DNA of 64,000 nt from an uncultured virus (IMG/VR IMGVR_UViG_3300043411_001904) (IMGVR_UViG_3300043411_001904); one strand, 5' to 3'; positions 11,134 to 32,949 are shown, numbered from the stretch's first letter. The notes: generated by a model not told the origin, from the sequence alone. Numbers and translations are program-made.

Positions 11134-11136
11134 GTG

Positions 11137-11208
11137 TGACCTCACCGGGAGTCGAACCCAGATCGAAAATTTAGGAAATTTTAATTCTATCCATTGAACT
11201 ATGAGGTC
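11137..11208 (-). tRNA. tRNA-Arg(CCT)
   Basis: cloverleaf GACCTCA..TGAGGTC, anticodon loop TTCCTAA, TTCGACT T-loop. Confidence 0.92.
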
Positions 11209-11378
11209 ATAATTCTATCTATCTTCTGTTCACGAATATAAGACTTTTTATAGACAGGTTGCCAAATTTCCGGATATTTAAGAAATTCTCCCGATGTATA
11301 GGGTTCAAAATCTCCTTTCCTTCTTCCACATCCTGGATATTCTCTAATAAGGACAAATCCTTCGATTTTATCTTTCAT
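11199..11378 (-). CDS. hypothetical protein with C-terminal RxxKI motif
   Basis: IREQKIDRI; stop codon lies inside tRNA-Arg. Confidence 0.6.
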   Translation of the reverse strand: MKDKIEGFVLIREYPGCGRRKGDFEPYTSGEFLKYPEIWQPVYKKSYIREQKIDRIMTS

Positions 11379-11394
11379 ATTGTTAGTATTTTTG

Positions 11395-11480
11395 TACCGG
11401 AGGTTGGAGTCGAACCAACAATAGGAGTAAACCAATCCCCTTATGAGGAGGACACCATTACCACATCGGATCACACCGGC
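11395..11480 (-). tRNA. tRNA with CAT anticodon (Met or Ile2) on a long-variable-arm body
   Basis: TCCTC-CTCATAA-GGGGA; about 15-nt variable region; GTTGG-TTCGACT-CCAAC. Confidence 0.8.
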
Positions 11481-11773
11481 ATTAACTGCAAATTAATCTC
11501 TCTTATTATAATTTTATTATCAATATGTTGATGTTTGTATGATTTAGATATTATTGATCTAAAGGCATTTTCAATTACTGTCTTCTCTTCAGACGAAAAT
11601 TCATTAAAATCTTCACCCAAGCCTGAATTGCCATTATCATCACTGAATATACACTCACCTGTCCACCTTCTATAGATTGAAATATACTTAAAACCGTCTG
11701 TATTGGAATTAAGATCCCAATTTCCATATTGGTTATTTTGAATATCCTTTAGAAATTTTCTAATATTTTTCAT
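11471..11773 (-). CDS. hypothetical protein
   Basis: 100-aa ORF; stop inside the downstream tRNA. Confidence 0.55.
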   Translation of the reverse strand: MKNIRKFLKDIQNNQYGNWDLNSNTDGFKYISIYRRWTGECIFSDDNGNSGLGEDFNEFSSEEKTVIENAFRSIISKSYKHQHIDNKIIIREINLQLMPV

Positions 11774-11984
11774 CGAACACCTTTTCTATTTTTTCTAATC
11801 GTCTCTGTGAGATAAACTTCGTAAAATAAGATACCACTAAAGTAGCAACATATCCTTTAACACTCATATCTAAATTACACTTATCTATATGTAACTTGAC
11901 AAATTCAAAACATTCAGATTTAATTAAATCATCACTAACGTAGTGCCTTTCCGCATATCTATCAATTATATCTTTAATATACAT
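11760..11984 (-). CDS. hypothetical protein with C-terminal RxxKI motif
   Basis: RRLEKIEKVF. Confidence 0.55.
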   Translation of the reverse strand: MYIKDIIDRYAERHYVSDDLIKSECFEFVKLHIDKCNLDMSVKGYVATLVVSYFTKFISQRRLEKIEKVFDEKY

Positions 11985-11988
11985 ATTA

Positions 11989-12531
11989 TTATTTTTTAAG
12001 GTAATAAACAAGAGCACTTTCAGAAAAAAAAGATGGTAAATCTTTATCTGATTTATCAAATTTTATAAAATCAAATTCATTACAAATCCTACTATCTAGT
12101 TCATCTAGTAACTTATTAAATTTTTCTTTTTTTAGAGATAAATTAGACTTAAAATTGGTACTTATACCAATTATAATACTGTATTCAATTTTATGCCTTT
12201 TAAGTTGAATAATCAATGATCGTAAACTGCTTTGATAGTCAATTAATGAGTTCTCATCACTCTGGATACTTGGAGAAGATTGCAAATAATCATTAAGGAT
12301 ATCAAATCTATTAGATGATCCTGTTATAATTTTTTCATCAGTAGAAATAAATATATAATTCGGTTTAGAATCAATAATATATCTAATAATCAACACAAAG
12401 TCATAATCTATACCCTCATCCTCAAGCTCAGAAATAAGAATATCATTGATACTATCAATCGTATCATCAATTATCGGAAGTGTTGATTTAGAAATGTGCT
12501 TTTCAATAAATTTTTCCCATCTATAAATCAT
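11989..12531 (-). CDS. hypothetical late protein (MIYRWEKFIE tag)
   Basis: GATATATA upstream; variant of the N-terminal motif. Confidence 0.6.
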   Translation of the reverse strand: MIYRWEKFIEKHISKSTLPIIDDTIDSINDILISELEDEGIDYDFVLIIRYIIDSKPNYIFISTDEKIITGSSNRFDILNDYLQSSPSIQSDENSLIDYQSSLRSLIIQLKRHKIEYSIIIGISTNFKSNLSLKKEKFNKLLDELDSRICNEFDFIKFDKSDKDLPSFFSESALVYYLKK

Positions 12532-12564
12532 ATCTTATATATCATAAATCAATTTTATTTTTAG

Positions 12565-12637
12565 AGCTAGAACCCAGAATTTAACTGGGATTACGTCATT
12601 ACCAATGACGTGTAATCAACCTTTATACGATTCCAGC
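12565..12637 (-). tRNA. tRNA-Thr(GGT)
   Basis: GCTGGAA..TTCTAGC; CGTCA-TTGGTAA-TGACG. Confidence 0.85.
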
Positions 12638-12910
12638 AATGTCATCTATCTTACTATCCCTGATCTTTTCTATATCATATTTAAATGTATGGAATTGATC
12701 CGAAAATTCTTCTCCATTTTCCATTTTGACTGTTAAAATATCTGAAGTTTGAGACCACATTGACCTAGACATTACCCAAGGACCTTGTGATATACGAATA
12801 ACTTGACCCCTTCTAACTTTTAACCTAAAAGGTATTCCCACCAAAGACCCATCATATTCAGTTCCATTATTCAAAACAAAATCACCTATTCTAAATTTAT
12901 TCTTGTTCAT
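12623..12910 (-). CDS. hypothetical protein with C-terminal RxxKI motif
   Basis: KFRIGD start; IRDSKIDDI end. Confidence 0.6.
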   Translation of the reverse strand: MNKNKFRIGDFVLNNGTEYDGSLVGIPFRLKVRRGQVIRISQGPWVMSRSMWSQTSDILTVKMENGEEFSDQFHTFKYDIEKIRDSKIDDIAGIV

Positions 12911-13002
12911 AACAATTTATCTATTCTACTTTCTCGAAATTTCTGAATATCAAACTCAAACACATAGAAAAAATCCGACAACTTTGAACTTGTTTTCTTC
13001 AT
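12907..13002 (-). CDS. 31-aa micro-ORF ending in RESRIDKLL
   Basis: read by hand: MKKTSSKLSDFFYVFEFDIQKFRESRIDKLL; ATGA overlap with next gene. Confidence 0.45.
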   Translation of the reverse strand: MKKTSSKLSDFFYVFEFDIQKFRESRIDKLL

Positions 13003-13007
13003 TCATG

Positions 13008-13088
13008 TACCTTGGGTGGGAATCGAACCCACACTCCTTTCAGAACGCGATTTTGAGTCGCGGGTGTCTACCGTTCCACCACCAAGGC
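13008..13088 (-). tRNA. tRNA-Leu(CAA)
   Basis: class II cloverleaf; CGCGA-CTCAAAA-TCGCG. Confidence 0.93.
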
Positions 13089-13090
13089 AT

Positions 13091-13435
13091 TTATTCAATA
13101 ATACTATTTATCTTTTTATTTCTTTTAAGTTTATCTAATTCTTCTTTCATTTCTACAGAAGATAAAATCTTCTTAGATGGTAATTGATTATAGGTCAAAA
13201 TATTATCAATTCCTATCCACCATCCGAAAAATATTAATTTGTGAAGAGAACAGTCTAGATATTTATCTCTATCCAAATTAATCACTCCCCGTTTAATTAT
13301 CTTAATCCATATAACTGATGACAGGATGGATAAAAGAGATAATCCAACTAAAATAATTAGAAAATTAACTTGTGATAGGTATATGATAACCCAAAATACA
13401 AAAAGTCCTATAATATCAATTGGATTGATTCTCAT
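13091..13435 (-). CDS. membrane protein with C-terminal RxxKI motif
   Basis: two hydrophobic segments; KRNKKINSII. Confidence 0.6.
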   Translation of the reverse strand: MRINPIDIIGLFVFWVIIYLSQVNFLIILVGLSLLSILSSVIWIKIIKRGVINLDRDKYLDCSLHKLIFFGWWIGIDNILTYNQLPSKKILSSVEMKEELDKLKRNKKINSIIE

Positions 13436-13438
13436 TTG

Positions 13439-13509
13439 AGGTCAGGGTGAGATTTGAACTCACGTACGGGGTTTTGCAGACCCCTGCCTCGCCTCTCGGC
13501 CACCTGACC
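13439..13509 (-). tRNA. tRNA-Cys(GCA)
   Basis: GGGGT-CTGCAAA-ACCCC; U73. Confidence 0.93.
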
Positions 13510-13511
13510 AA

Positions 13512-14231
13512 TTAAGTCTCTAATATAGTAAATTTATTATTCCACCAACAGGGAATATAATTATTAATTTTACAATGTTCAATAAGTGATTTTTTCTTCT
13601 CATCAACAGTTAAAAAATATAATGGTCTTGAGTATTTATTAGTAGGATTTTTACTTATAACAGATTTACACTCACACAAATAAATTTTTCCATTACTATC
13701 TTTTATTATAAAGTCGGGAGTATATCTCCTGATTTTACCATCATATAAGTATTCTATGTGGTCATAAAATCTATCCAACTCGATAACACTGTAATTTTTA
13801 CAAAAGAATGTAAGGAAATTAAATTCCAATTTTGAATCACATCTTACGGATTTTCCATCAAATATAAATTCACATCTAATCGAATTAAACGAGAATTTAC
13901 CCTCAGATCTAGCTTTGGTAGATTTTATTGAAGCATTGGTTCTATAAGACTCATTTTCCCAAGTTCTTTTTATTGAACAACTATGGGAACACGTCTTTTG
14001 ATTTCTTTTACTAAAAGTAACAATGAAATCTCTACTACAATAAAGACAAATTTTGTTAATTTTTGGATTTCCAGAATTCTTTTTTAGAAGAGTTTTACTA
14101 ACCTTAGTATTTATCTCCAATCTCTTATTTCTTGTTGAAAACGATCTAGAACAAACACGAGAGCAAAACTCTCCACTTGAATATTGACTATATTTCATTC
14201 CATCTTTTTCTCCACAATTTTTACAAATCAT
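13512..14231 (-). CDS. Zn-finger plus TnsA-like PD-(D/E)XK endonuclease (putative homing endonuclease)
   Basis: CxxC..CSxxC repeats; DSKLE..YTPDF..ECK. Confidence 0.75.
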   Translation of the reverse strand: MICKNCGEKDGMKYSQYSSGEFCSRVCSRSFSTRNKRLEINTKVSKTLLKKNSGNPKINKICLYCSRDFIVTFSKRNQKTCSHSCSIKRTWENESYRTNASIKSTKARSEGKFSFNSIRCEFIFDGKSVRCDSKLEFNFLTFFCKNYSVIELDRFYDHIEYLYDGKIRRYTPDFIIKDSNGKIYLCECKSVISKNPTNKYSRPLYFLTVDEKKKSLIEHCKINNYIPCWWNNKFTILET

Positions 14232-14274
14232 AAGATATATATCAAATTCGAACCTCTACCTTATCGTATTTTAG

Positions 14275-14345
14275 TACCCCAAGGTGAAATCGAATCACCA
14301 CCTTCACTACGTCAAAGTGATACGCTACCACTACGCCATTGGGAT
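14275..14345 (-). tRNA. tRNA-Val(GAC)
   Basis: TCACT-TTGACGT-AGTGA. Confidence 0.88.
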
Positions 14346-14346
14346 G

Positions 14347-14445
14347 TGGTGAACTAGATTGGAATTGAACCAACTTTTGCGACCGTAATGGTCGCCGTAG
14401 ACCGACTATCCACTTCATGTGGCGGACCATTACTACCTCTAGCTC
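14347..14445 (-). ncRNA. tRNA-like RNA with hairpin inserted in the D-loop, non-canonical anticodon loop and encoded CCA
   Basis: GAGCTAG/CTAGTTC-ACCA acceptor; GTAG/CTAC D-stem enclosing CCAC-ATGAA-GTGG; GCGACC-ATTAC-GGTCGC. Confidence 0.7.
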
Positions 14446-14448
14446 TAG

Positions 14449-14531
14449 AAGCGGGAATCAGATTCGAACTGATGTTCTCTTTCGAGTTAGGGCTTATGAG
14501 GCCCCTGGTACCATCTCCAGTCGATCCCGCG
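14449..14531 (-). tRNA. initiator-like tRNA-Met(CAT) with extra variable hairpin
   Basis: C1:U72 mismatch; GGGC-CTCATAA-GCCC; CTC-GAAA-GAG extra arm. Confidence 0.75.
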
Positions 14532-14563
14532 ATTTAATTATACAAGTATAGTAAAATTTGTTG

Positions 14564-14634
14564 TACCCCGAGATGAATTCGAATCATCACCTCCGCCATG
14601 TAAAAACGGAACGCTACCATTACGCCATCGGGGC
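14564..14634 (-). tRNA. tRNA-Val(TAC)
   Basis: CCGTT-TTTACAT-GGCGG. Confidence 0.88.
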
Positions 14635-14639
14635 ATTAG

Positions 14640-14725
14640 TGATTCTGGTAGGAATCGAACCTACGTTAACCTATTCGGCCTTCCGGTTGTAAGCCGGACG
14701 TTCTTAACCACTGAACTACAGAATC
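14640..14725 (-). tRNA. tRNA-Val(TAC) with long variable arm
   Basis: TCCGG-CTTACAA-CCGGA; GGCC-GAATA-GGTT extra arm. Confidence 0.8.
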
Positions 14726-14730
14726 ATAAA

Positions 14731-14808
14731 GGAAAGAAAATTTAACAGAGTTGTTTTTTCGATTACAAATTAGAAGTTTGTTGAAGTATCTCTATTAGTC
14801 ACTATTCC
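14731..14808 (-). ncRNA. hairpin ncRNA between tRNAs (possible Y-RNA-like)
   Basis: GGAA/TTCC and TAATAGAG/CTCTGTTA stems; no ORF. Confidence 0.4.
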
Positions 14809-14813
14809 TCTTG

Positions 14814-14888
14814 TTGGATCAAATGGATTCGAACCATTGGCCTTCCCAATCTTGTTAGGGACGTTCTTCCTGACTGAACTACAATCCA
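14814..14888 (-). tRNA. tRNA-like gene, undetermined anticodon
   Basis: intact acceptor, D and T arms; enlarged loop TAACAAGATT. Confidence 0.7.
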
Positions 14889-14894
14889 ATTTTG

Positions 14895-14971
14895 TTGCGA
14901 CGAATGGATTTGAACCACTGACCTTTCCCCTAATAAGGTGGGAATGCTCTCCCTGACTGAGCTACATCGCA
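14895..14971 (-). tRNA. tRNA-like gene, undetermined anticodon (10-nt loop)
   Basis: TTCCC-ACCTTATTAG-GGGAA with intact other arms. Confidence 0.7.
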
Positions 14972-14974
14972 GTA

Positions 14975-15361
14975 TTAATTTATTTGATTATCTGATCTAA
15001 AATGTCTTCGTGGGTCTATATCAAAATCATCCGGATCTTCAATTTTTTCAACATTTTTAGATTTCTTCTTAGCTAAAGAAATCACTTTCTTTATAAGCCT
15101 TTTACTAACTTCCAATTCCTTATCTTCTAGGTACATTGAATAAGAATTAGAAAAAAATGGATCAAAAAAAGATATTAAAACAACTAAAAACTCATAATTA
15201 CCTATCCCGAATTTCCAACTTTCTGATTTAGTCATACTAGGCATATAACTAGAATAACTATAATTTTTCAAATTATTCTTTGGATCTTTAAGTTGTTGTA
15301 TCAACTCTTCAACAATGTCATCATCTTTTTTCTTGGAAAAGAAACTTTCTAAATATTTCAT
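14975..15361 (-). CDS. hypothetical late protein (MKYLESF tag)
   Basis: TAATATATA just upstream. Confidence 0.65.
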   Translation of the reverse strand: MKYLESFFSKKKDDDIVEELIQQLKDPKNNLKNYSYSSYMPSMTKSESWKFGIGNYEFLVVLISFFDPFFSNSYSMYLEDKELEVSKRLIKKVISLAKKKSKNVEKIEDPDDFDIDPRRHFRSDNQIN

Positions 15362-15431
15362 TATCCTATATATTATTTCTGAAACTTATTCACCTAGTAG
15401 TTTGAATTTCTTCAGGGACCACTAGGAATTG

Positions 15432-15503
15432 AGGATTCACTCGAACTCGAATCGAGGACACATGGGTACGAATCACGTATTTTTCCGACTAAACTATGAA
15501 TCC
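15432..15503 (-). tRNA. tRNA-Thr(CGT)
   Basis: GGATTCA..TGAATCC; loop TTCGTAC. Confidence 0.82.
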
Positions 15504-15504
15504 A

Positions 15505-16161
15505 TTAATAACTTTTATCTTCATTATACCTAACCATTCTAGAATGTCTCCCTTTACCCCTGTTCAAAGATTTGTAAGTTGGAGTCAATGAATGACAATT
15601 TGGACACAATAATTTCAAATTAGATAAATCATTATTTTCTGAATTTCCATCAATATGTTCTATTTCGATTGGAACCTTTCCTGTTGTCAGATTAATTTGA
15701 CACCATCCACAATCCATACATTTATTACCATGTGTTTTAATCAGATATTTTTTAATCGACCTACTAGAACCATTTCCACTTACAATTATTAAATTTCTTA
15801 ATTCTTCTTTATGTAAATCATTGCAATTCTTTGAACAATATTTAACATTCCCCTTACCAATTATCTCAGAGTCACAAACTACACATTTCAATCTCCACTT
15901 CACTCGGGTCCTATTAACATTAATAGCTGAACATCTTCTGCTACAAAACTTTCTACCATCTGAAACAATACATTTAAATTCCTTATTACAATTTTCACAT
16001 TTAACTGTTTCTCTTTTAGAGTCATAGAATTTTGATGAAATAGATAACTTTGATTTAATTCTAACTATTGTAGATCTAGAAACTCCCAATTCCTTAGAAA
16101 TTCTAAAATTTGACATCCCCTGATCAACTAACTCAAATACATCAGCCCATAATTTTTCCAT
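15505..16161 (-). CDS. HNH homing endonuclease with HTH and Zn fingers
   Basis: ISKELGVSRSTI HTH; EHIDGNSENN..NLKLLCPNCH. Confidence 0.9.
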   Translation of the reverse strand: MEKLWADVFELVDQGMSNFRISKELGVSRSTIVRIKSKLSISSKFYDSKRETVKCENCNKEFKCIVSDGRKFCSRRCSAINVNRTRVKWRLKCVVCDSEIIGKGNVKYCSKNCNDLHKEELRNLIIVSGNGSSRSIKKYLIKTHGNKCMDCGWCQINLTTGKVPIEIEHIDGNSENNDLSNLKLLCPNCHSLTPTYKSLNRGKGRHSRMVRYNEDKSY

Positions 16162-16206
16162 ACCCTATATATTCAGAAGTGTGAGCTTCCCTTGGAAAGG
16201 GAGTAG

Positions 16207-16294
16207 AGCCGGGAGTGGGATTCAAACCCACGATGGTCGCTTTCGCTATACTAACTTACAAGGTTAGGGCCTTCGTTCTCTTGGCTATCCCGGC
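16207..16294 (-). tRNA. tRNA-Thr(TGT) with long variable arm
   Basis: CTAAC-CTTGTAA-GTTAG; GC-GAAA-GC extra arm. Confidence 0.8.
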
Positions 16295-16309
16295 AATTAT
16301 TTAATAATG

Positions 16310-16657
16310 CTATTTACCTTTCTCTCTATTAAGTCTAACTTCATTCTCTGGAAAAAGAATAACACAGTTAAGAGGATTTTTATAATCTATAGTTTGCCAA
16401 GTTCCATTTTTCCTGACATGGGGAATACCACATTCCTTTAAAACATTAGATATCTTAATATACTCATTACTTAGTATATCAACTACATTAGTGTCTTTAT
16501 TATAATCATATTCTATACCTTCCTCGTCAAGAAATTGTATTAGCTTATCAACATCACCATTTGAAGAATCATAATATCCCGTATAGGGATTAGGTTCTGT
16601 CATAAGTATAGGAGCATTTTCATTAACAACAAAAGAATCAAATTTTTTAATATTCAT
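16310..16657 (-). CDS. hypothetical protein (MNIKKFDSF tag)
   Basis: recurrent N-terminal motif. Confidence 0.65.
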   Translation of the reverse strand: MNIKKFDSFVVNENAPILMTEPNPYTGYYDSSNGDVDKLIQFLDEEGIEYDYNKDTNVVDILSNEYIKISNVLKECGIPHVRKNGTWQTIDYKNPLNCVILFPENEVRLNREKGK

Positions 16658-16672
16658 ATTTTCTATATTTAT

Positions 16673-16897
16673 TTATCCTATTCCATTACTATTTTCTAAT
16701 TCTTCAAGAGAATCATATCGACCAATAACATCCAAGTCCGGATCTAGAAAATAGAATTTTTCATCATCCACTCCATATCCAATGTATTCAACATACCCAT
16801 CCCTTTCAGGATCAAAGATATCGATAATCATAATGGTTTCATCTTTAACAAAATCTCCAACAGTTATCTTCTCTAAGAATTTTTTCAGGTGCTTCAT
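16673..16897 (-). CDS. hypothetical protein (MKHLKKFLE tag)
   Basis: recurrent N-terminal motif. Confidence 0.65.
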   Translation of the reverse strand: MKHLKKFLEKITVGDFVKDETIMIIDIFDPERDGYVEYIGYGVDDEKFYFLDPDLDVIGRYDSLEELENSNGIG

Positions 16898-16901
16898 TGG
16901 T

Positions 16902-17123
16902 TTAATTATTTTGAGTAAGTCTACCGGATTCTATCAATTTCAGAACCTTTCTTTTAGTGAATCGATAAGCAGTAGCTCCTTCCATAAATCTTTCTTGAAA
17001 TTGCATTGATTTCGCTTCCTTAGCAGAATCATCCATTATTTTGATCATTGAATCAAGCCAATCAACGATATTTTGATTATCTAATAGATATAGATATTTC
17101 TTATCTGATAATTCATTTTTCAT
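16902..17123 (-). CDS. hypothetical protein
   Basis: TAATATATA upstream. Confidence 0.55.
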   Translation of the reverse strand: MKNELSDKKYLYLLDNQNIVDWLDSMIKIMDDSAKEAKSMQFQERFMEGATAYRFTKRKVLKLIESGRLTQNN

Positions 17124-17138
17124 ATTCTATATATTAAG

Positions 17139-17210
17139 AGGTCAATGTTGGAATCGAACCAACCTTCAAGAGTTTGCAATTCTTGACCTAAGCCACTCGG
17201 ACACTTGACC
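17139..17210 (-). tRNA. tRNA-Cys(GCA)
   Basis: loop TTGCAAA; U73. Confidence 0.85.
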
Positions 17211-17212
17211 AT

Positions 17213-17407
17213 TTAAATACCCTTAGACAATTTTAGTCTATTTCTAAGTTCTTCTTCTTCAAAATCCCCACCAAAATCAGAAATATGATTATATCTCTTT
17301 AATCTATCAATAATTTGATCAATTGATAGATTATCATATCTCTCATCAGCCTTAACAAGACGTTCAAGAATATCAACTCTCCAATCTATCCAATTTGGTC
17401 TTTTCAT
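17213..17407 (-). CDS. hypothetical protein
   Basis: 64-aa ORF in packed run. Confidence 0.5.
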   Translation of the reverse strand: MKRPNWIDWRVDILERLVKADERYDNLSIDQIIDRLKRYNHISDFGGDFEEEELRNRLKLSKGI

Positions 17408-17411
17408 GATT

Positions 17412-17612
17412 CTACCAAATAGCTGCCCACATAGGTAGAGAAATACCCGTTACTTTCTTAAGTACATCATGATCAGCAACTTCATCATATTGATGAGAAT
17501 CAATCACCTCTAGCTCTTCTTCATTCAAAGAATCAATTATGTTGATATCATTATGATTAAGCGAACTTAATAGTTGCGAACGCCTTTCCTCTGTAAGATT
17601 GTTATCAAACAT
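17412..17612 (-). CDS. hypothetical protein
   Basis: 66-aa ORF downstream of a TATATTTG promoter. Confidence 0.5.
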   Translation of the reverse strand: MFDNNLTEERRSQLLSSLNHNDINIIDSLNEEELEVIDSHQYDEVADHDVLKKVTGISLPMWAAIW

Positions 17613-17671
17613 AATAAATTTTATAATTAGACGACAAATATATCAAATAACTTTCATAAAAACAATTCTTG

Positions 17672-17749
17672 TCGGTGGAAAGAGATTCGAACTCTTATTT
17701 TCAACCAATTACCTTACTCCTGCATATCAGACAGGGTGGATACCCACCG
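17672..17749 (-). ncRNA. D-armless tRNA-like RNA with GAT anticodon
   Basis: CGGTGGG/TCCACCG acceptor; no D hairpin; CCTGT-CTGATAT-GCAGG; long variable segment; AAGAG-TTCGAAT-CTCTT. Confidence 0.7.
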
Positions 17750-17753
17750 AAAT

Positions 17754-17818
17754 TGGGATTGGGCCTTTAACCACTTTACAACAGTATCTGTTGAACTAGA
17801 CATCGAACCTAGATCCCA
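17754..17818 (-). ncRNA. circularly permuted tRNA-like RNA (YrlA/Y-RNA-like order)
   Basis: TGGGAT/ATCCCA closing stem; T-arm, then closed hairpin, then AGTGGTTAA D-like loop. Confidence 0.5.
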
Positions 17819-17820
17819 TG

Positions 17821-17894
17821 TTGGCCTGGTCGGTAACGATCCGACTACCTCGAAATTATCAGTTTCGCGCTCTAACCATCTGAGCTACAAGCCA
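17821..17894 (-). tRNA. tRNA-Ile(GAT)
   Basis: CGAAA-CTGATAA-TTTCG. Confidence 0.9.
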
Positions 17895-17953
17895 AAATTG
17901 ATAGATCCAAACCTCTTTAATGGAGGACCTTTCTATCTTTAGGTTTTTTAATC

Positions 17954-18301
17954 TTAAAAATCTAGTGTAACTTTATTCCTTTCATTTAGAACGAAAATTG
18001 TCGTGTTGGAATATGATTCACCTGATGGATGAGCCATCACAACATAATATCCACCAGATTCTCCCATAAACAATTGTTCACCTTTCGCAGAATACGATGA
18101 AATTGTATAATCATAATAGTCATCACAATTTCCATCTGTAAATATTCGTAAATTATCGGAATATTTACCCGATCCTATCCCCCAAGGAGAATCATTTTTC
18201 TCAACTGGAGAATTATTATAACTATCATATCCAATCAGTTTCATAATATCCTTATGAACAACTTTGGATTCTTTAATGTGGTTTAGAACTTTTTCAATCA
18301 T
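17954..18301 (-). CDS. hypothetical protein
   Basis: 115-aa ORF after a TATATTTG promoter. Confidence 0.6.
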   Translation of the reverse strand: MIEKVLNHIKESKVVHKDIMKLIGYDSYNNSPVEKNDSPWGIGSGKYSDNLRIFTDGNCDDYYDYTISSYSAKGEQLFMGESGGYYVVMAHPSGESYSNTTIFVLNERNKVTLDF

Positions 18302-18342
18302 TTTACAAATATAAGAAAATATTCTAAATCTTCACAATTATG

Positions 18343-18415
18343 CGGGTCCAATAGGGTACGATCCTATAATGTCTGATTAACAGTCAGAAGTGATGTCCGT
18401 TTTCACCATAGACCC
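18343..18415 (-). tRNA. tRNA-Asn(GTT)
   Basis: TCTGA-CTGTTAA-TCAGA; G73. Confidence 0.88.
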
Positions 18416-18440
18416 ATTTTTATTCGAACCAACGATTTTG

Positions 18441-18526
18441 AGGGGATGGAGAATTACGATATCTCGACCCTCGTTTTAACAGAACGACGCTCTCGGACCG
18501 AAGTCACACCTCTGAGCTACATCCCC
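18441..18526 (-). tRNA. tRNA with GTT (Asn) anticodon and a UUCG hairpin inserted in the D-loop
   Basis: GCTC..GAC-TTCG-GTC..GAGC; TCGTT-CTGTTAA-AACGA; U73. Confidence 0.78.
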
Positions 18527-18650
18527 AAAATTTTATTTATAATTGTGTCAATACTATCAGACCTAAAACACCCTTTAGTTATCTCAATGGAATTGGCTGA
18601 GATTGCCAACACTCATAATCAGGGGACGGTGACACCCAACCACCCAAACA

Positions 18651-18860
18651 TCACCGTCCCCGATAATACGTCTTCAAAAAATCAAGTAATTCCAAGAAAT
18701 AAAATATCACAATACATCCAATCACATAAATAGGCCAAAATATAGATTTAAGAAGTCCATATTTAGTTTCTGTAAAAACACTTGAGATAAATGCCATAGT
18801 TCCAAATACTGAATAAATCAATACTCCAATAACCAATAGTATTATACTTAATGTACTCAT
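18651..18860 (-). CDS. small membrane protein
   Basis: two hydrophobic helices; SIFWP motif. Confidence 0.6.
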   Translation of the reverse strand: MSTLSIILLVIGVLIYSVFGTMAFISSVFTETKYGLLKSIFWPIYVIGCIVIFYFLELLDFLKTYYRGR

Positions 18861-19066
18861 TATCTTGCTCCACCAGCTGTCATTTTATCCGAGGCATCTT
18901 TGAAGAACTTAGCCAAGTCCTTCAAATCAACTCCTGTTATCAGAATATTCGTATTAGAGTATCCAAAAAACCCGAAATCAATATGAATATATCCATACTC
19001 ATCAACTTTAAACTTAAATCCTCCGTTATCAACGTGGAAGTATTTTTCATGAATTATCTTCTCCAT
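18860..19066 (-). CDS. hypothetical protein
   Basis: TAATG coupling to next gene. Confidence 0.55.
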   Translation of the reverse strand: MEKIIHEKYFHVDNGGFKFKVDEYGYIHIDFGFFGYSNTNILITGVDLKDLAKFFKDASDKMTAGGAR

Positions 19067-19079
19067 ATTTATTATTTTG

Positions 19080-19149
19080 CTCCATCAATAGGATTCGAAC
19101 CTATACCTCCGAGATAAATCTCGGTGTGCCACCGTGACACCACAATGAA
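19080..19149 (-). tRNA. tRNA-like gene with collapsed anticodon loop
   Basis: CCGAGA-TTTA-TCTCGG; other arms intact. Confidence 0.7.
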
Positions 19150-19226
19150 TAGAGAATAAACCCTTCTACCAAAAAAGATTTACTCTCAAGAGATTGGACA
19201 ATTGGTAGACAACCCGCCACTCTTTG

Positions 19227-19299
19227 TAGTCCCACCGGGATTCGAACCCAGACCCATTGTTTAGAAGACAATGACGCTTTCCAGTTACGCCATGGAACC
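19227..19299 (-). tRNA. tRNA-Arg(TCT)
   Basis: ATTGT-CTTCTAA-ACAAT. Confidence 0.92.
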
Positions 19300-19309
19300 A
19301 TGTTTGTTG

Positions 19310-19393
19310 TCCAAGAGGAAGGATTCGAACCTCCGTAAAAGATCCACAAACGCAAATCGTTGTGAAAATTGACTTCCAATAGTCTACTCTCGG
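19310..19393 (-). tRNA. tRNA-like gene with extended anticodon arm
   Basis: CCGAGAG/CTCTTGG acceptor; D and T arms present; TTCACAA..TTGTGGA long arm. Confidence 0.65.
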
Positions 19394-19426: not shown

Positions 19427-20134
19427 CTAATCCAAAATTCCATTTGATTTTAATTCTTTAATCACTCCGGATATAGTTCCTTTACTACAATTTAATTCTT
19501 TTCTAATTTCACTCTGTTTCATTCCATTACGATACATATCTAGAACAACATTTCTATCTATTTTAGATCTCAATTCTTTAATATTCGTTGATTTTAATAA
19601 TATTTCTTTCTTGTTAAGTTCAAAGAACTCAAAACTTGAATGTATTTTAATGTGACAATTGGCACATAAAACTACACACTTACTCAGCTCATTAGAAATA
19701 TCTTCACTAATATCCAATATTGATCTTAAGATTATATTAATTGATTTCAATTTGAATTTCTTATCTCTTAAATGGTGAAAATGAAGAGAGCAATATTTAT
19801 CATATCCACACTTCTCACATCTTATAACATTTTTATATTCCAAAAGTATTTTCTTGTTATTTCTCTGTCTATTATTAATTTGATCACCAAAATGTAATTC
19901 ATGATGGCAATTATGACATATCAATTCACATTTCATAATTTCCCTTTCAATAATTGACATTCTATGATTTCTAATATCATTTATATCAAATTCTTTATCA
20001 ATTGGATTAATATGATGAAAGCATAACTTAAATATATCTGATTCTTCACATTTAATACATTTCCCACCCATTGAATTTATTACTTTAATTCTTTTTGCTA
20101 ATTTAAGTATCTTCGTGCTAATAATCTTTTTCAT
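19427..20134 (-). CDS. tandem-HNH endonuclease with C-terminal HTH
   Basis: two CxxC..FHH..C..LCxNCH units; IRKELNCSKGTIS. Confidence 0.88.
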   Translation of the reverse strand: MKKIISTKILKLAKRIKVINSMGGKCIKCEESDIFKLCFHHINPIDKEFDINDIRNHRMSIIEREIMKCELICHNCHHELHFGDQINNRQRNNKKILLEYKNVIRCEKCGYDKYCSLHFHHLRDKKFKLKSINIILRSILDISEDISNELSKCVVLCANCHIKIHSSFEFFELNKKEILLKSTNIKELRSKIDRNVVLDMYRNGMKQSEIRKELNCSKGTISGVIKELKSNGILD

Positions 20135-20188
20135 AAGTTCAAGTCGTTTATCTATATATATTAAATAAATAACTCGAACTTTTTCTAG

Positions 20189-20278
20189 TACCTCAGGTCG
20201 GAGTCGAACCGACAGCGTTTACCACGAGGGTCTGCGCTCCTAAGGCGCAGGTGTTTCATCCAGTTTCACCACTGAGGC
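20189..20278 (-). tRNA. tRNA-Leu(TAG)
   Basis: TGCGC-CTTAGGA-GCGCA; long variable arm. Confidence 0.92.
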
Positions 20279-20287
20279 AAATAAATT

Positions 20288-20427
20288 AGAAATATCTCCC
20301 AACCTCCGCGGTTAGTCAATTATACACACTCATGACTACTAGATCTAGACTCGCGAATCTAGAACCTCACCATGAACACATAACACTCTTACCCACCTGA
20401 TCAGGGTCGTCATCATAAGAGATTTCT
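20288..20427 (-). ncRNA. unclassified rod-like structured RNA of about 140 nt
   Basis: AGAAATCTC..GAGATATTTCT closing stem; TCTAGATTC/GAGTCTAGA apical stem. Confidence 0.5.
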
Positions 20428-20431
20428 TCAG

Positions 20432-20513
20432 TACGTGTGGAGAGACTTGAACTCTCATATCTTTTCAGACACCACTATCTCGAAGTGGCATGTATGCATT
20501 CCATCACACACGT
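20432..20513 (-). tRNA. tRNA-Leu(GAG)
   Basis: CCACT-TCGAGAT-AGTGG (atypical C33); long variable arm. Confidence 0.82.
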
Positions 20514-20521
20514 ATATATTT

Positions 20522-20616
20522 TCCAACGGGAATAGATCCAAATACCCACCATCTTCAGGATCTTCCGTATCCCCATACGGGCGGTCATCTTTTGGAAAAC
20601 CGACATTCCCATTGGA
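20522..20616 (-). ncRNA. unclassified multibranch structured RNA of about 95 nt
   Basis: 12-bp closing stem TCCAATGGGAAT/ATTCCCGTTGGA with internal hairpins. Confidence 0.5.
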
Positions 20617-20648
20617 CTAGGACTAAATTAATAATCCTAGTAATTCTA

Positions 20649-20741
20649 TTAGATCAGTCATCCTCTTAACCTACTGGTTGCCGCAATGTTTACCATCGCG
20701 ACCACCCGGGCTTGAACCGTATTTTCTTCAATGTGATCTAA
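20649..20741 (-). ncRNA. second permuted tRNA-like (Y-RNA-like) RNA
   Basis: TTAGATCA/TGATCTAA closing stem; CGG-TTCAAGC-CCG T-like arm, long hairpin, AGTAGGTTAA D-like loop. Confidence 0.45.
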
Positions 20742-20746
20742 ATATG

Positions 20747-20837
20747 TAGTCCAGGTCGGAGTCGAACCGACAACGTTTAACCTCTTGGGTATGCGATCTT
20801 AAGCCGCACGCGTCTCTACCAGTTTCGCCACTGGACC
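20747..20837 (-). tRNA. tRNA-Leu(TAA)
   Basis: TGCGG-CTTAAGA-TCGCA; long variable arm. Confidence 0.92.
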
Positions 20838-20850
20838 AAATACTAACAAT

Positions 20851-20862
20851 ATTTCAATGAAC
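20851..20862 (-). promoter_or_regulatory. boxA-like antitermination element
   Basis: GTTCATTGAAAT just before the first tRNA; similar motifs near 31500, 31950 and 32890. Confidence 0.55.
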
Positions 20863-20884
20863 TTTTATTCTACTTGTCTAAAAC

Positions 20885-20918
20885 AAAAAACCCGACTTTC
20901 TTTTCAGATTGTCGGGTT
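20885..20918 (-). terminator. attenuator intrinsic terminator
   Basis: AACCCGAC..GTCGGGTT followed by a U-tract. Confidence 0.8.
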
Positions 20919-20942
20919 GGTTTCCTTTTTTAATTCAGATGA

Positions 20943-21035
20943 TTACTCCGAATCTAGGTTATAACCCGAGCCTTTGGTTCTTACACAGAGTGTATTCACC
21001 ATCCTCAAATTAATATTTAGATTTAGCGTTTTCAT
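20943..21035 (-). CDS. leader peptide of the tRNA/aaRS region
   Basis: MKTLNLNINLRMVNTLCVRTKGSGYNLDSE; contains TCGGGTT complementary to the terminator 5' arm; TAATATATA and TATATTTG promoters upstream. Confidence 0.8.
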   Translation of the reverse strand: MKTLNLNINLRMVNTLCVRTKGSGYNLDSE

Positions 21036-21137
21036 TTTTGTATATATTAACTTTTTTCTCTCCCTTTTGAGATATTTGTATTCTATTACAAATATAGTAC
21101 TAAGTTTTTATAATTTACAAATTTATTATAATTTTAT

Positions 21138-21791
21138 TTACCAACGGTCTGTTTCTTTTGAAGACAAATCATCCTCAACAATATATTCTAATAAGGACTC
21201 TATGGAATCATATTTTTTCTTACCATAATCACTGAATATTATATTATTCTCAGATATATAGTGAACCTGTTTCATGTAATTATGACTATCATGAGAATAT
21301 AATAATCCAAAAAGAACATACCCACCATCCATTCTTTTTAGTTTATTTCCTAGGAATTTAATAGAATCTACAACATCTGTCTTTAATTCAAACTTCTCTT
21401 CGTTATCATCCATAGAATATCTAGTTACAATTACGAAGTGTGCTTGTTCAGTCTCCTTATTGAATCCTGAAACGTAAACACCATCCAATTGGATAAAATA
21501 TCTGTTAGCTAAATCGTGATGAACTTTATCTTCACTCTGATTTTTCTGAAATACAAAATTTAATTGATCATCATCTAAATCAAAAATACTCTTGGGAAGA
21601 GATCCGAACTTTTCCTCAGATTCTTTTTCTTTTCTTTCTCTAAGAATGGATCGAATGAATCTTATTTGATCTTCAAGAAGTTCCTGCTCCTCAAACATAA
21701 CATCTAGTTTTTCTCTTAACTCATCATCGTCCAAATTATGAAGAAAGTCAATATTCATATTTTCTTTAATGAATTGGTTATACTTCTTCAT
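21138..21791 (-). CDS. hypothetical late protein (MKKYNQFIKE tag)
   Basis: TAATATATA upstream; N-terminus closely resembles the T4 capsid-targeting sequence. Confidence 0.7.
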   Translation of the reverse strand: MKKYNQFIKENMNIDFLHNLDDDELREKLDVMFEEQELLEDQIRFIRSILRERKEKESEEKFGSLPKSIFDLDDDQLNFVFQKNQSEDKVHHDLANRYFIQLDGVYVSGFNKETEQAHFVIVTRYSMDDNEEKFELKTDVVDSIKFLGNKLKRMDGGYVLFGLLYSHDSHNYMKQVHYISENNIIFSDYGKKKYDSIESLLEYIVEDDLSSKETDRW

Positions 21792-30664: not shown

Positions 30665-30731
30665 GAATTTACTATTTTAGAGCCTGAACCGGATTCGCAC
30701 CGATTCGAAGTCGCCTAGACCAGACTTGATA

Positions 30732-31485
30732 GGGGCTGAGATTATACCCGTTATCGACAAATCTTTTGTGAGATTATGTTTTCCTCACTTATCCACCAAT
30801 GTTGCCACTGGTATCTTGTCAATCTCAGTTACTTGAAGGGTAACCAATCCTATCGTGTGTCCAAACTCAACCATTACTCCATCTATTCAGAAGTGCCCTC
30901 CTGATTCAACCTTGCGGGTCTATAAACTTTTCGTGATCAAAACAACAGACCTTGCGGGTTTATTGTCTCCCAATTTACCAAAGGTATTAGGAATTAGAGA
31001 CCTTTCGGAAATACACGCCACGAGAATTTGGCTTTATTTTATATAATGCAATAAAATTGATTATTGGACGACGCTCTCGTGGAGCAGCTACGATCCTTTT
31101 GGAATCACAATACTACACGCCATCCTATCAGTTCCCTGATGGTCAAGAAGATCTCCGCTAAAAGCGTCATGAATCACACGCACATAGTGCGGGACACAGA
31201 ACACATATTCCACATCGACCAACTAAACTGAAACAAGCATTCTAGAAGTTGGCTTCTATCACACTCAAATCCACAAATCATCTTATAGCCTTAAGCATCA
31301 AACACCACATTTAGGGACATAATCACATCCATAGTATGATATTGAGATCCAAGTCACTTGACCGAGGTTCTCATACCGATTCGCTTATGATTAAACTCTT
31401 TAACAAGTCGGGATTGTTACCCTTTATCCCCGTTACCGGGTATTATTTATTCACATCCGAAGATGTGATGGACTCCATACAGCCC
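30732..31485 (-). ncRNA. large ornate ncRNA, GOLLD-like (about 750 nt)
   Basis: no credible ORF; higher GC; 5' GGGCTG pairs with 3' CAGCCC; many GNRA/UUCG hairpins (CCCGCAAGG twice, CCGAAAGG, CTTCGG); next to tRNA-like genes; family name from size and recalled motifs only. Confidence 0.65.
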
Positions 31486-31512
31486 AATATTTTCAATATG
31501 TAAAAGAACTAG

Positions 31513-31587
31513 TGGGTTTCTGAGGACTCTAACCTCAAGATTCGCCAACTATTAAACACTAGGTGTATAACAATTGCAAATAAACCC
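31513..31587 (-). ncRNA. tRNA-like RNA (acceptor plus T-arm, single long hairpin replacing D and anticodon arms)
   Basis: GGGTTT/AAACCC-A; TGAGG-TTAGAGT-CCTCA. Confidence 0.55.
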
Positions 31588-31591
31588 TTTG

Positions 31592-31733
31592 TAGTCTGTC
31601 CAGGATTCGAACCTGATTTTCCGAGTGAAGCTCGGCGTCCTAGTGTGATAATCAACTCAGATCTTCAGACGAGATCCTCAAATTAATCCAACACACCTCC
31701 ATCATAAAGATGGATCCAGTAGACGAACAGACC
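31592..31733 (-). ncRNA. tRNA-Glu-derived RNA with a structured D-loop insertion of about 80 nt
   Basis: GGTCTGTTCGTCTA..TAGGAC; CCGAG-CTTCA-CTCGG; TTCGAAT T-loop; ACAGACT-A. Confidence 0.75.
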
Positions 31734-31761
31734 AAAAATTCGATGGAATAACCCATCATCG

Positions 31762-31939
31762 CAGTCTGTATTGGATTCGAACCAATGTTACCAATTAGAT
31801 CGTAACCTAATTAGTGTCCTAATATATTTTAGTCAAACGAGCTCAAGGCTCAGGTCATATAAAAAATTTTATACATTTTAATATAATATATTAAATTTTG
31901 ACCGACTAAAATACATTGGTACCCCTAGACGAACAGACC
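31762..31939 (-). ncRNA. tRNA-Glu-derived RNA with a D-loop insertion of about 100 nt and a tetraloop-capped anticodon arm
   Basis: same 5' GGTCTGTTCGTCTA; insertion closed by TATTTTAGTC/GACTAAAATA; ATTAGGT-TACG-ATCTAAT. Confidence 0.75.
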
Positions 31940-32017
31940 AAGAATATTCAAAGAACATTAACAATACAAATATAAGTAAAAATTTCTGAACTACAAAATA
32001 TTTTTTACTTTTTTTAG

Positions 32018-32104
32018 TGACCCGTTGTGGATATGAACCACAATCCCACATCCCATCTGGTTAACCCAATCGGGAATCTTGTGTCTTGCTTAGACTAACG
32101 GATC
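32018..32104 (-). ncRNA. tRNA-like RNA with extended anticodon arm
   Basis: GATCCGT/ACGGGTC-A; GTCT/AGAC D-stem; TGTGG-TTCATAT-CCACA. Confidence 0.65.
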
Positions 32105-32250
32105 ATTTCTGATTAACTTTACAAATATAAATCTAAATTTTCATCTAGACAATTTTTTTGTAAAAATTCTCAGAAAACTAGATCTGATACTCTTATCCTC
32201 GTCTTTCAGAGGACATTTATAGGTTGAAAATCAACCAATCTAGTTAAATA

Positions 32251-32853
32251 AAAACCTAGTATTGCTCGGTTTCTTTGAGTATGACCATTACTGTCAACAC
32301 ACCCCCTAGTCCGGGGTTCATACTCTTTGTCACATAGTTATTATCAGAACTATGACTGGTGAGACTAAGTTTATTCTACACTTCCACTTGACCTGTTGTA
32401 CTCAATCCTTGTTACCAAGGATTCAGTCAAGTTTGATGAATCTATTTCAAATATTGAGGAATACTATTCATAGATCCCTTTCGGGTGAAATACCACACTT
32501 TCATATGATATCATAGACACTTCTAAACTTAGAATCGTGATTTTTATCAGATAAATCTGATTTCCCTCAACTAATATGTAATTTATGTTTTTTTCATAAA
32601 TTTATATTTTTATGGGTTGGATTCTTTACCTTGTAAAGATAAAATCACAAATCCTTTAATTTTTAGGCAACTACACTATACTGGGGGTATAGATCTACAC
32701 CTAAAACACTAGACAACTTCTGTATATCCCCATACACATCTATGTCGTCCCAAGGATGAAGTCCAGCTCCTACACAGTCTATCACTGCTACTACTAGATC
32801 CTTGTTTTGAGTATCCTCTTACGAGTCCTAGTTTAGGTTAGTAACCTAGGTTT
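32251..32853 (-). ncRNA. large ornate ncRNA, ROOL-like (about 600 nt)
   Basis: no ORF; AAACCTAG/CTAGGTTT closing stem; hairpins GAATCCTTG-GTAA-CAAGGATT, GAGTATGA..TCATACTC, CCCGAAAGGG; upstream hairpin plus GTTCTTTGAAA boxA; family name from size and recalled motifs only. Confidence 0.6.
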
Positions 32854-32949
32854 ATACACCGCTCAACATCGGTGGTTTCAATAAATTTTCAAAGAACAAC
32901 CAAGTTTTTCTCGACTTGGAATATTTATATATTGGGTGATTAAAAGGTT

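Follow-up and report, generated by a model that had tools for sequence, protein, structure and literature searches.

Known attenuators and the phage element

In transcription attenuation of the trp/his type, stalling of a ribosome frees an antiterminator. Enterobacteria have multivalent attenuators of this kind, such as the thr leader with Thr and Ile codons and the ilvGMEDA leader with Ile, Leu, and Val codons, next to the leaders trpL, hisL, leuL, and pheL. An aminoacyl-tRNA synthetase (aaRS) is under attenuation in the pheST operon of E. coli, with pheM as the leader. T-box riboswitches of Firmicutes bind uncharged tRNA via a specifier codon and the T-box sequence, without translation. The purpose of tRNA arrays in phages, and the way in which phages use them, has yet to be settled; most often, such arrays are regarded as constitutive patches for codon usage or as spares against tRNA-targeting defences. 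Here, we describe a short leader open reading frame (ORF) that lies between a promoter and an intrinsic terminator at the head of a tRNA array, in a 64,000-nucleotide (nt) stretch of DNA from an uncultured virus (IMG/VR IMGVR_UViG_3300043411_001904; the whole stretch is called the window, and positions are counted from its first letter). Judging from the sequence, we consider this element to be a multivalent ribosome-mediated (leader-peptide) transcription attenuator heading the phage tRNA array, with a probability of roughly 0.8.

The element shares with thr- and ilv-type leaders the promoter, the short ORF rich in diagnostic codons, the mutually exclusive 1:2, 2:3, and 3:4 pairings, and the intrinsic terminator, and it would likewise sense more than one amino acid. 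It differs from them in that tRNA genes and not amino-acid biosynthesis genes would be the target, that it is phage-borne and lacks a Shine-Dalgarno sequence, in an expression context of the Bacteroidota type, and that up to 8 amino acids would be sensed per leader, with leaders nested within super-arrays. As in pheM/pheST, codon-matched attenuation would act on the translation apparatus, and relatives of the window phage have leaders before aaRS genes too; whereas the product of pheST is the synthetase, that of the phage element would be the sensed tRNA itself, which is direct feedback. Like T-box riboswitches, the element would couple the state of specific tRNAs to read-through of a terminator via an antiterminator, before translation-related genes; unlike them, it contains a complete ORF, from start to stop codon, and gave no match to the T-box model.

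A literature search covering listings and abstracts gave no description of leader-peptide attenuation of tRNA genes, and the main text of the huge-phage paper does not contain 'leader', 'attenuat', or 'terminator' (PMC7162821). Attenuation is known for amino-acid genes and was not found in print for tRNA genes; the phage probably makes these tRNAs only when ribosomes run short of them.

Leader ORF and its codons

ARAGORN made 23 tRNA calls in the window, 22 of which form a loose minus-strand array from 20837 down to 11136, with the leader in front of it. The features of this region are as follows.

21089..21121, minus strand: Bacteroidota-type promoter, TTTG-N21-TATATTTG (pattern TTTG-N17-23-TAnnTTTG)
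21059..21072, minus strand: small hairpin of the 5' untranslated region (5'-UTR), CUCAAAAGGGAG, present in the minimum free energy (MFE) structure of the leader transcript
21041..21049, minus strand: start-site motif TAATATATA, 5 nt before the leader ATG
20943..21035, minus strand: leader ORF, 30 codons plus TAA, MKTLNLNINLRMVNTLCVRTKGSGYNLDSE
20976..21029, minus strand: sensor block (codons 3-20), 18 consecutive codons decoded by array tRNAs (Thr, Leu, Asn, Ile, Arg, Met, Val, Cys)
21004..21012, minus strand: region 1 (UAAUUUGAG, codons 8-11), pairs with region 2; duplex -7.4 kcal/mol
20962..20970, minus strand: region 2 (CUCGGGUUA, codons 22-25), pairs with region 1 or, via UCGGGUU, with region 3
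20911..20918, minus strand: region 3, terminator 5' arm AACCCGAC
20880..20896, minus strand: region 4, terminator 3' arm GUCGGG, then UUUUUUGUUUU
20746..20837, minus strand: tRNA-Leu(taa), first gene past the terminator, 47 nt downstream of the end of the first T-run
20431-20513, minus strand: tRNA-Leu(gag) (ARAGORN), by position in one transcription unit with tRNA-Leu(taa)
20188-20278, minus strand: tRNA-Leu(tag) (ARAGORN), by position in one transcription unit with tRNA-Leu(taa)
11136..19393, minus strand: remaining array, 19 tRNA calls (ARAGORN)

The four regions of the window leader are arranged as in the trp/his class, and region 1 falls within the sensor block. The 19 calls of the remaining array comprise tRNAs for Ala, Arg (two), Asn, Ile, Cys (two), Thr (three), Leu (two), Val (three), and Met (two), as well as a suppressor tRNA (tta) and one tRNA with a 6-nt anticodon loop.

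The first 20 codons of the leader are ATG AAA ACG CTA AAT CTA AAT ATT AAT TTG AGG ATG GTG AAT ACA CTC TGT GTA AGA ACC, followed by AAA GGC TCG GGT TAT AAC CTA GAT TCG GAG TAA. An earlier note on this DNA had quoted the leader and proposed that its codons index the downstream tRNAs; the quotation was exact and corresponds to the minus-strand ORF 21035..20943. All anticodons named there were detected in the array by ARAGORN, namely Thr cgt, tgt, and ggt, Leu tag, caa, and gag, Arg cct and tct, Val tac, and those for Cys, Ile, Asn, and Met. With wobble treated conservatively, array tRNAs decode 20 of the 29 codons that follow the start codon, with 10.8 expected from the long ORFs of the window (binomial P 5e-4). 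The match is limited to the first 20 codons; among codons 21-30, two of ten were matched.

A chance origin, in which an AT-rich short ORF came by accident to stand between promoter and terminator, was weighed against these numbers. The matched fraction alone is not unique, as it was reached by 5 of 277 short ATG ORFs of the window (20-45 codons), and the 7-bp antiterminator of the window is not significant if taken by itself. However, the run of 18 consecutive matched codons was unique among the 277 short ORFs (the next best was 9), so random AT-rich ORFs do not match the anticodon set equally well. The longest matched run in the 39 window ORFs of at least 150 amino acids (aa) was 9, and none of the 11,986 29-codon segments of these long ORFs had 20 or more matches. 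In addition, the same arrangement was seen in 26 units from five genomes and at 19 more loci. We therefore give almost no credence to chance.

The block at 21121-21089 was typed as a promoter by the Bacteroidota consensus TTTG / TAnnTTTG. It is 77% identical in the related phage LR756502, and a strict promoter motif was found no more than 170 nt upstream of the ATG in 18 of 33 leader loci. Scanning of IMG/VR with the promoter 18-mer gave five loci, all of them unrelated chance matches, and scanning with the promoter-plus-start pattern gave none. Hairpins similar to that of the 5'-UTR were seen by eye in relatives. The motif TAATATATA occurs at 19 sites in the window, 17 of which precede the ATG of an ORF of at least 60 aa, mostly at a distance of 4-5 nt (e.g., 22949+ and 42607-); the 18th belongs to the leader. 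Such ORF starts are preceded by the motif at 121 of 211 sites in LR756502 and 103 of 191 sites in LR745206. In this phage group, the motif appears to serve as the start signal in place of a Shine-Dalgarno sequence. From this motif, from the frame that stays intact in all homologues despite many indels, and from near-identical natural variants, we infer that the leader ORF is translated.

A lipoprotein signal peptide (..TLC..) was also considered for the leader peptide and rejected by eye: there is no hydrophobic core, Leu stands before Cys, and the pattern is missing in other leader families.

Leaders and tRNA arrays of related phages

The nearest records to the window in the phage collection were LR756502 (642 kb) and LR745206 (635 kb). 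They were compared together with the IMG/VR contig G001 (508 kb) and LR756503 (735 kb). According to the huge-phage paper, genomes larger than 634 kb belong to the 'Mahaphage' clade with predicted Bacteroidetes hosts (PMC7162821). A tblastn search of the phage collection with asparaginyl-tRNA synthetase (AsnRS) revealed no additional megaphage. With the upstream 244-aa protein of the window as an anchor, no relatives were found in IMG/VR; its one homologue, in LR745206, has neither a leader nor tRNAs after it.

In the four relatives (508-735 kb), 25 further leader-terminator units head tRNA arrays, including 7 in LR745206, 6 in G001, and 4 in LR756503. Essentially every tRNA array in the scanned LR756502 and LR745206 records has such a unit. 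In LR756502, a promoter and ORF start homologous to those of the window precede a 35-codon Gln/Asp-rich ORF, a different terminator, and Pro/Asp/Gln tRNAs. The following leaders and arrays were among those found.

LR756502, leader MRTINKHKHFSKLNKWFSNHRFEAKAFC: His/Phe/Trp tRNAs behind
LR756502, leader MKTKRKYKR: three Lys tRNAs behind
LR756502, leader MKTTIKNTSSRSRSSKSGEVRLYS: Arg/Ser tRNAs behind
LR756502, leader MNRFTNIETIGYTGYEGAYSE...: Glu/Tyr tRNAs behind
LR756502, leader MKNLHNISVGVIAIGAGSV...: Ile/Gly/Ala tRNAs behind
LR756502, leader MKTMNLNMNLNTLTVVNNTLCIR... (homologue of the window leader): Asn/Leu/Val/Ile/Thr/Arg tRNAs behind
LR756502, leader MTTSFQQQQQQQINRTD (Q7 run): four Gln tRNAs behind
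LR756503, leader MNNILHINLLNSLCLLGIKLIG, 8 Leu among 22 residues: all-Leu array with five Leu tRNAs
LR756503, leader ..KYNDYCIND..: Ile/Cys/Asp/Asn/Tyr tRNAs behind
LR756503, leader ..IINMIQEQMQQIQ..: Met/Gln/Ile/Glu tRNAs behind

The tRNAs of LR756503 are partitioned differently, and the leaders track that partition. In the array 362000-368100 of LR756503 (Arg/Thr/Val/Ala/Gly/Pro), no leader was detected in the stretch examined with the criteria used.

Enrichment and permutation tests were performed conservatively, using only tRNAs called by ARAGORN with default settings and located between one leader and the next. Codons of the own array were enriched at P<0.05 in 19 of 22 leaders of the window, LR756502, LR745206, and G001. 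The true pairing of leaders with arrays was the single best of 40320, 5040, and 720 permutations for LR756502, LR745206, and G001, respectively, and the own array was the best column for 7/8, 7/7, and 5/6 leaders. For LR756503, with background codon usage borrowed from LR756502, all four leaders were enriched and the true pairing was the best of 24 permutations. An earlier permutation run with 6 and 7 leaders, in which tRNAs missed by ARAGORN and found by Rfam were added by hand, had the same outcome. Altogether, 23 of 26 leaders in five genomes were enriched for codons of their own array, and the true pairing was best in four genomes; the leader codons thus co-vary with tRNA array content in related phages. 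This recurrence in five genomes with differently partitioned arrays indicates a general feature of the megaphage group and not a curiosity of a single locus.

These results bear on a simpler possibility, that the attenuator is a general translation-coupling switch that reports ribosome availability or translation speed and not specific tRNAs. Such a switch would agree with the window leader, which spans 8 amino acids, some of them represented once, and the outcome of the 1:2, 2:3, and 3:4 pairings would be identical whatever slowed translation. It does not account for codon content that tracks each array, with the true pairing the best in all four sets of permutations, and it would have no need for the codon runs found before single-amino-acid arrays (Q7 before Gln tRNAs, 8 Leu among 22 residues before Leu tRNAs). 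We regard a general switch as unlikely.

Terminator and alternative pairings

The intrinsic terminator of the window, at 20918-20880, consists of CCCGAC-N14-GUCGGG followed by U6GU4, with a hairpin of -12.0 kcal/mol. It is separated from the leader ORF by a 24-nt spacer and from tRNA-Leu(taa) by 47 nt with no promoter motif between. The sequence TCGGGTT (20969-20963, codons 23-25) is perfectly complementary to AACCCGA (20918-20912) in the terminator 5' arm, as the earlier note had pointed out. The boxA-like motif that the note also mentioned could not be found: the E. coli rrn boxA 12-mer had no match with up to 3 mismatches in 20002-21667, although a Bacteroidota-specific boxA could differ, and the whole window had 85 matches with 81.5 expected by chance. 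Instead, a conserved long T-tract (TTTTTTGTTTTA) follows the hairpin.

The fold of the leader transcript (approximately 21083 to 20878) has an energy of -46.7 kcal/mol (z -4.0; none of 200 shuffles was as good). In the full-length MFE structure, region 1 UAAUUUGAG is paired with region 2 CUCGGGUUA and the terminator is formed; if the 3' arm is omitted from the fold, UCGGGUU is paired with AACCCGA. Both predicted states, 1:2 plus 3:4 and 2:3, therefore exist.

A canonical terminator was present after 12 of the 14 leaders examined first. Among 20 leaders with terminators, the terminator appeared in the full-length MFE of all 20, and in 15, an ORF segment captured the 5' arm when the MFE was computed for the transcript without the 3' arm (shuffled ORFs: mean 10.35, 15 or more in 7 of 200). 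In the full MFE, this arm-capturing segment was paired with an upstream region 1 in 14 of the 20 leaders. Shuffling tests of duplex energy over the 20 leaders gave a Fisher-combined P of 1.3e-7.

A peptide-profile search for the family of the window leader gave one IMG/VR locus and 18 metagenome loci, and homologous ORFs were also present in LR756502, LR745206, and G001. An intact ORF of 31-36 codons was kept in all 19 further loci, which speaks for conservation of the leader. Terminator and tRNAs lie directly behind the leader in 18 of them, and the 19th locus is cut off. Taken together with the window and the three megaphage homologues, this search yielded 14 distinct leader-terminator variants among 22 loci. 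Since MAFFT alignments of the family put the terminator arms out of register, co-variation was tested by comparing duplex energies of cognate and re-paired combinations. In all 14 variants, region 2 falls within codons 22-31 and complements the terminator arm of the same variant. Stem sequences vary (CCCGAC, CCCGAAC, CCCGATC, CCCGACC, CCCTCAG, and CCCAGATTC), and region 2 changes along with them. The 2:3 duplex had a mean of -15.4 kcal/mol for cognate vs. -11.8 kcal/mol for non-cognate combinations, and none of 20000 re-pairings was as good. The N-terminal half of the family peptides is conserved (MKT.NLN...VN.TLC.R); the tails are not.

These data were also considered under the assumption that the ORF encodes an independent small protein acting in its own right and has a terminator of its own, with constitutive leaky read-through supplying the tRNAs. 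The normal start signal, the conserved N-terminal half, and the canonical-looking terminator would all suit such a gene. It would leave unexplained the own-array codon enrichment in 23 of 26 ORFs and the co-variation of an ORF segment with the terminator arm in peptides with unconserved tails. Moreover, neither a promoter motif nor even a -7 box was found between the terminator and the first tRNA at any of 33 loci (median gap 13 nt), so these tRNAs would be made only by read-through, and a strong unregulated terminator would silence them. A small-protein gene is, in our estimation, very unlikely.

Close variants of the region 20837-21068 of the window were present in DNA contigs of wastewater metagenomes, in three runs (X2-X4) over several years. 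Indels inside the ORF were +3 nt (X2) and +6 nt (X3, X4), and those in the spacer and terminator loop were 1, 1, 1, 2, 2, and 9 nt. Codon 11 AGG was swapped to GTC CTG or AAC CTG CAA and codon 4 CTA to ATG or AGG, and there were two synonymous changes, ACG>ACT and CTA>TTA. Most of the replacing codons likewise belong to the set read by the array (Leu, Met, Asn, Val, Arg). Neither region 2 nor the terminator stem differed in these variants.

A codon-rich RNA before tRNA genes could in principle pair with anticodons, and the leader RNA might then act untranslated, binding tRNAs or a protein as a T-box-like specifier, a sponge, or a processing or stability signal. The indels argue against this, because the frame, ATG, stop, and start motif survive many of them and only inside the ORF are all their lengths multiples of 3; the sensed triplets also all lie in one frame. 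A cmscan run on 20700-21200 with E up to 10 returned only tRNA and weak small-RNA noise, with no Rfam leader family, T-box, or other cis-regulatory family. An RNA-level element of this type appears highly improbable.

Several points weigh against a multivalent attenuator. In the window, the 2:3 pairing is only 7 bp long and not significant if considered alone, as 20 of 200 shuffled ORFs paired as well, and the 1:2 duplex is weak (-7.4 kcal/mol). All 14 family variants have a 1:2 pairing, which is weaker than 2:3 and whose re-pairing test was modest (534 of 20000). The end of region 2 lies 17 nt upstream of the leader stop codon, and its masking by a ribosome that terminates there may therefore be incomplete. 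Five of the 20 leaders had no antiterminator in the truncated MFE, and two Lys mini-leaders had a hairpin without a T-run. For several of the sensed amino acids (Cys, Ile), the leader contains just one codon, whereas classical leaders carry tandem runs. Three of the 26 leaders (A2, A4, and C4) were not enriched for their immediate sub-array; A4 and C4 matched the next sub-array (Gln) better than their own, in agreement with nested control. Because related phages have homologous leaders, their genomes do not count as independent replicates; within a single genome, the 4-8 units provide tests that are largely independent of one another. Finally, the depth of the wastewater contigs was 2-6, so single differences in the variants may be errors. 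On balance, folding, co-variation, the chance control, and ORF conservation support the core proposal of the earlier note, a trp/his-type attenuator with codons indexing the downstream tRNAs.

Proposed mechanism

Transcription would start from the promoter at 21121-21089, and the 30-codon leader would be translated as the RNA emerges. Codons 3-20 would serve as a test strip read by the phage's own array tRNAs. With fast decoding, the ribosome would run toward the stop codon, and region 2 would be masked or re-paired with region 1 behind the ribosome; the terminator (3:4) would then form, and RNA polymerase would halt 47 nt before tRNA-Leu(taa). If a cognate aminoacyl-tRNA is scarce, the ribosome would stall on codons 3-17, cover region 1, and leave region 2 free. 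The UCGGGUU of region 2 could then pair with AACCCGA, no terminator would form, and the polymerase would proceed into the tRNA genes. The outcome would be demand-driven negative feedback on tRNA supply during infection.

Stalling would thus decide on read-through, and the loss of any one tRNA species would be expected to stall the ribosome. The feedback would be negative because the regulated product is the sensed molecule. The relevant signal would presumably be loss of tRNA during infection, since amino-acid shortage also stalls the ribosome and more tRNA would not relieve it.

Beyond the single locus, we lean slightly towards the idea that giant Bacteroidota phages run a modular, codon-resolved translation homeostat. 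Each tRNA array and several synthetase genes would have their own leader, with nested leaders; exactly those host tRNAs that are depleted or cleaved, e.g., by host shut-off or by anticodon-nuclease defences, would be replaced, and leaders would evolve by in-frame swaps of sensor codons as the arrays change. If attenuation is confirmed, the phage measures a decoding shortage and answers it with matching tRNAs, by which textbook regulation is extended to tRNAs themselves. The leaders would predict which tRNAs matter, as a directly testable sensor, and would offer a natural, compact, and programmable codon-specific switch as well as an annotation rule for tRNA arrays of uncultured giant phages.

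Possible reach of control and synthetase genes

For the first three Leu tRNAs, the position downstream of the terminator is clear. Control of the leader over the remaining array (11136..19393) is uncertain, because the array is interrupted by ORFs of HNH endonuclease type and by internal promoters.

19427-20134, minus strand: HNH homing-endonuclease-like ORF between tRNA genes
15505-16161, minus strand: HNH homing-endonuclease-like ORF between tRNA genes
13512-14231, minus strand: HNH homing-endonuclease-like ORF between tRNA genes
19436-19406, minus strand: internal promoter within the array
17638-17606, minus strand: internal promoter within the array

Together with several small ORFs, the HNH ORFs stretch the array of the window to approximately 10 kb; in the relatives, homologous arrays have a compact size of 2-3 kb. 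The earlier note had extended the control to Asn, Met, and Arg synthetases further down the same strand. At a distance of approximately 10 kb, this is doubtful, since HNH genes and internal promoters lie between and the AsnRS homologue of LR745206 has its own leader and terminator. There, the leader MKTMTINNRNRLTDII and a terminator precede a class II D/K/N enzyme, the AsnRS homologue. In a relative, the leader MINNNVNILLLPLT precedes a class I enzyme of the I/L/M/V type. The leaders MKTLHTYKNVIDWM and MRALHTYKITIDLG lie upstream of a HisRS-like 210-aa gene, with at least one ORF between (a 65-67-aa ORF in both records). The synthetase-associated leader sites are given below.

LR745206, 390375-390425: synthetase-associated leader
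LR745206, 404566-404610: synthetase-associated leader
LR756502, 377658-377702: synthetase-associated leader
LR745206, 345085-345129: synthetase-associated leader

Genes for tRNA-Met just upstream of arrays (LR745206 364870, LR756502 388843, and G001 319612) follow directly after a promoter and a start-motif-like sequence, with no leader or terminator. These leaderless tRNA-Met genes look constitutively expressed.

Unusual tRNAs and other features of the window

A tRNA with the anticodon UUA is encoded at 14894-14971 on the minus strand (Rfam tRNA, 50.7 bits) and would read the stop codon TAA. The stop codon of the leader is TAA, and the next stop in that frame is a TGA in the loop, past the terminator 5' arm; with suppression, a ribosome would therefore be driven into the terminator. 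The long ORFs of the window look normal under code 11.

Genes resembling tRNAs with anticodon loops of 6 or 8 nt were recurrent, with ARAGORN 'anticodons' tt, tg, gt, ga, gtag, ggaa, and ttac. They were found in the window at 19079-19149 (minus strand), in LR756502 (435101 and 422753), LR745206 (407364 and 419836), G001 (407698 and 321617), and LR756503 (L153), and in L143. Frameshifting or decoy tRNAs are candidate functions of these genes. Some tRNAs other than those for Leu, Ser, and Tyr, namely for Met, Val, Thr, and Ala, had a length of 85-89 nt (11394-11480, 14639-14725, 16206-16294, and 19309-19393, minus strand). When introns were allowed, ARAGORN called insertions of 8-31 nt in some tRNAs of the relatives; the long tRNAs may be intron-bearing or otherwise expanded.

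The window is AT-rich, with a G+C content of 32%, and its genes include phage lysozyme, collagen-repeat proteins, four aminoacyl-tRNA-synthetase-like genes, and GOLLD RNA. The GOLLD RNA (Rfam RF02032, 252 bits) is located at 30733-31125 on the minus strand, within approximately 2.2 kb without long ORFs (approximately 30700-32950). An odd 88-nt tRNA-Gly(ccc) was called at 32017-32104, with promoter-like TAnnTTTG motifs on both sides. In LR756502, the GOLLD RNA (L049 14685-15091) lies directly before a tRNA. A 706-aa protein with the plug domain of TonB-dependent receptors is encoded at 36591-38711 on the minus strand; a SusC-like receptor is also reported for LR745206 and Mar_Mega_1 (PMC9723777).

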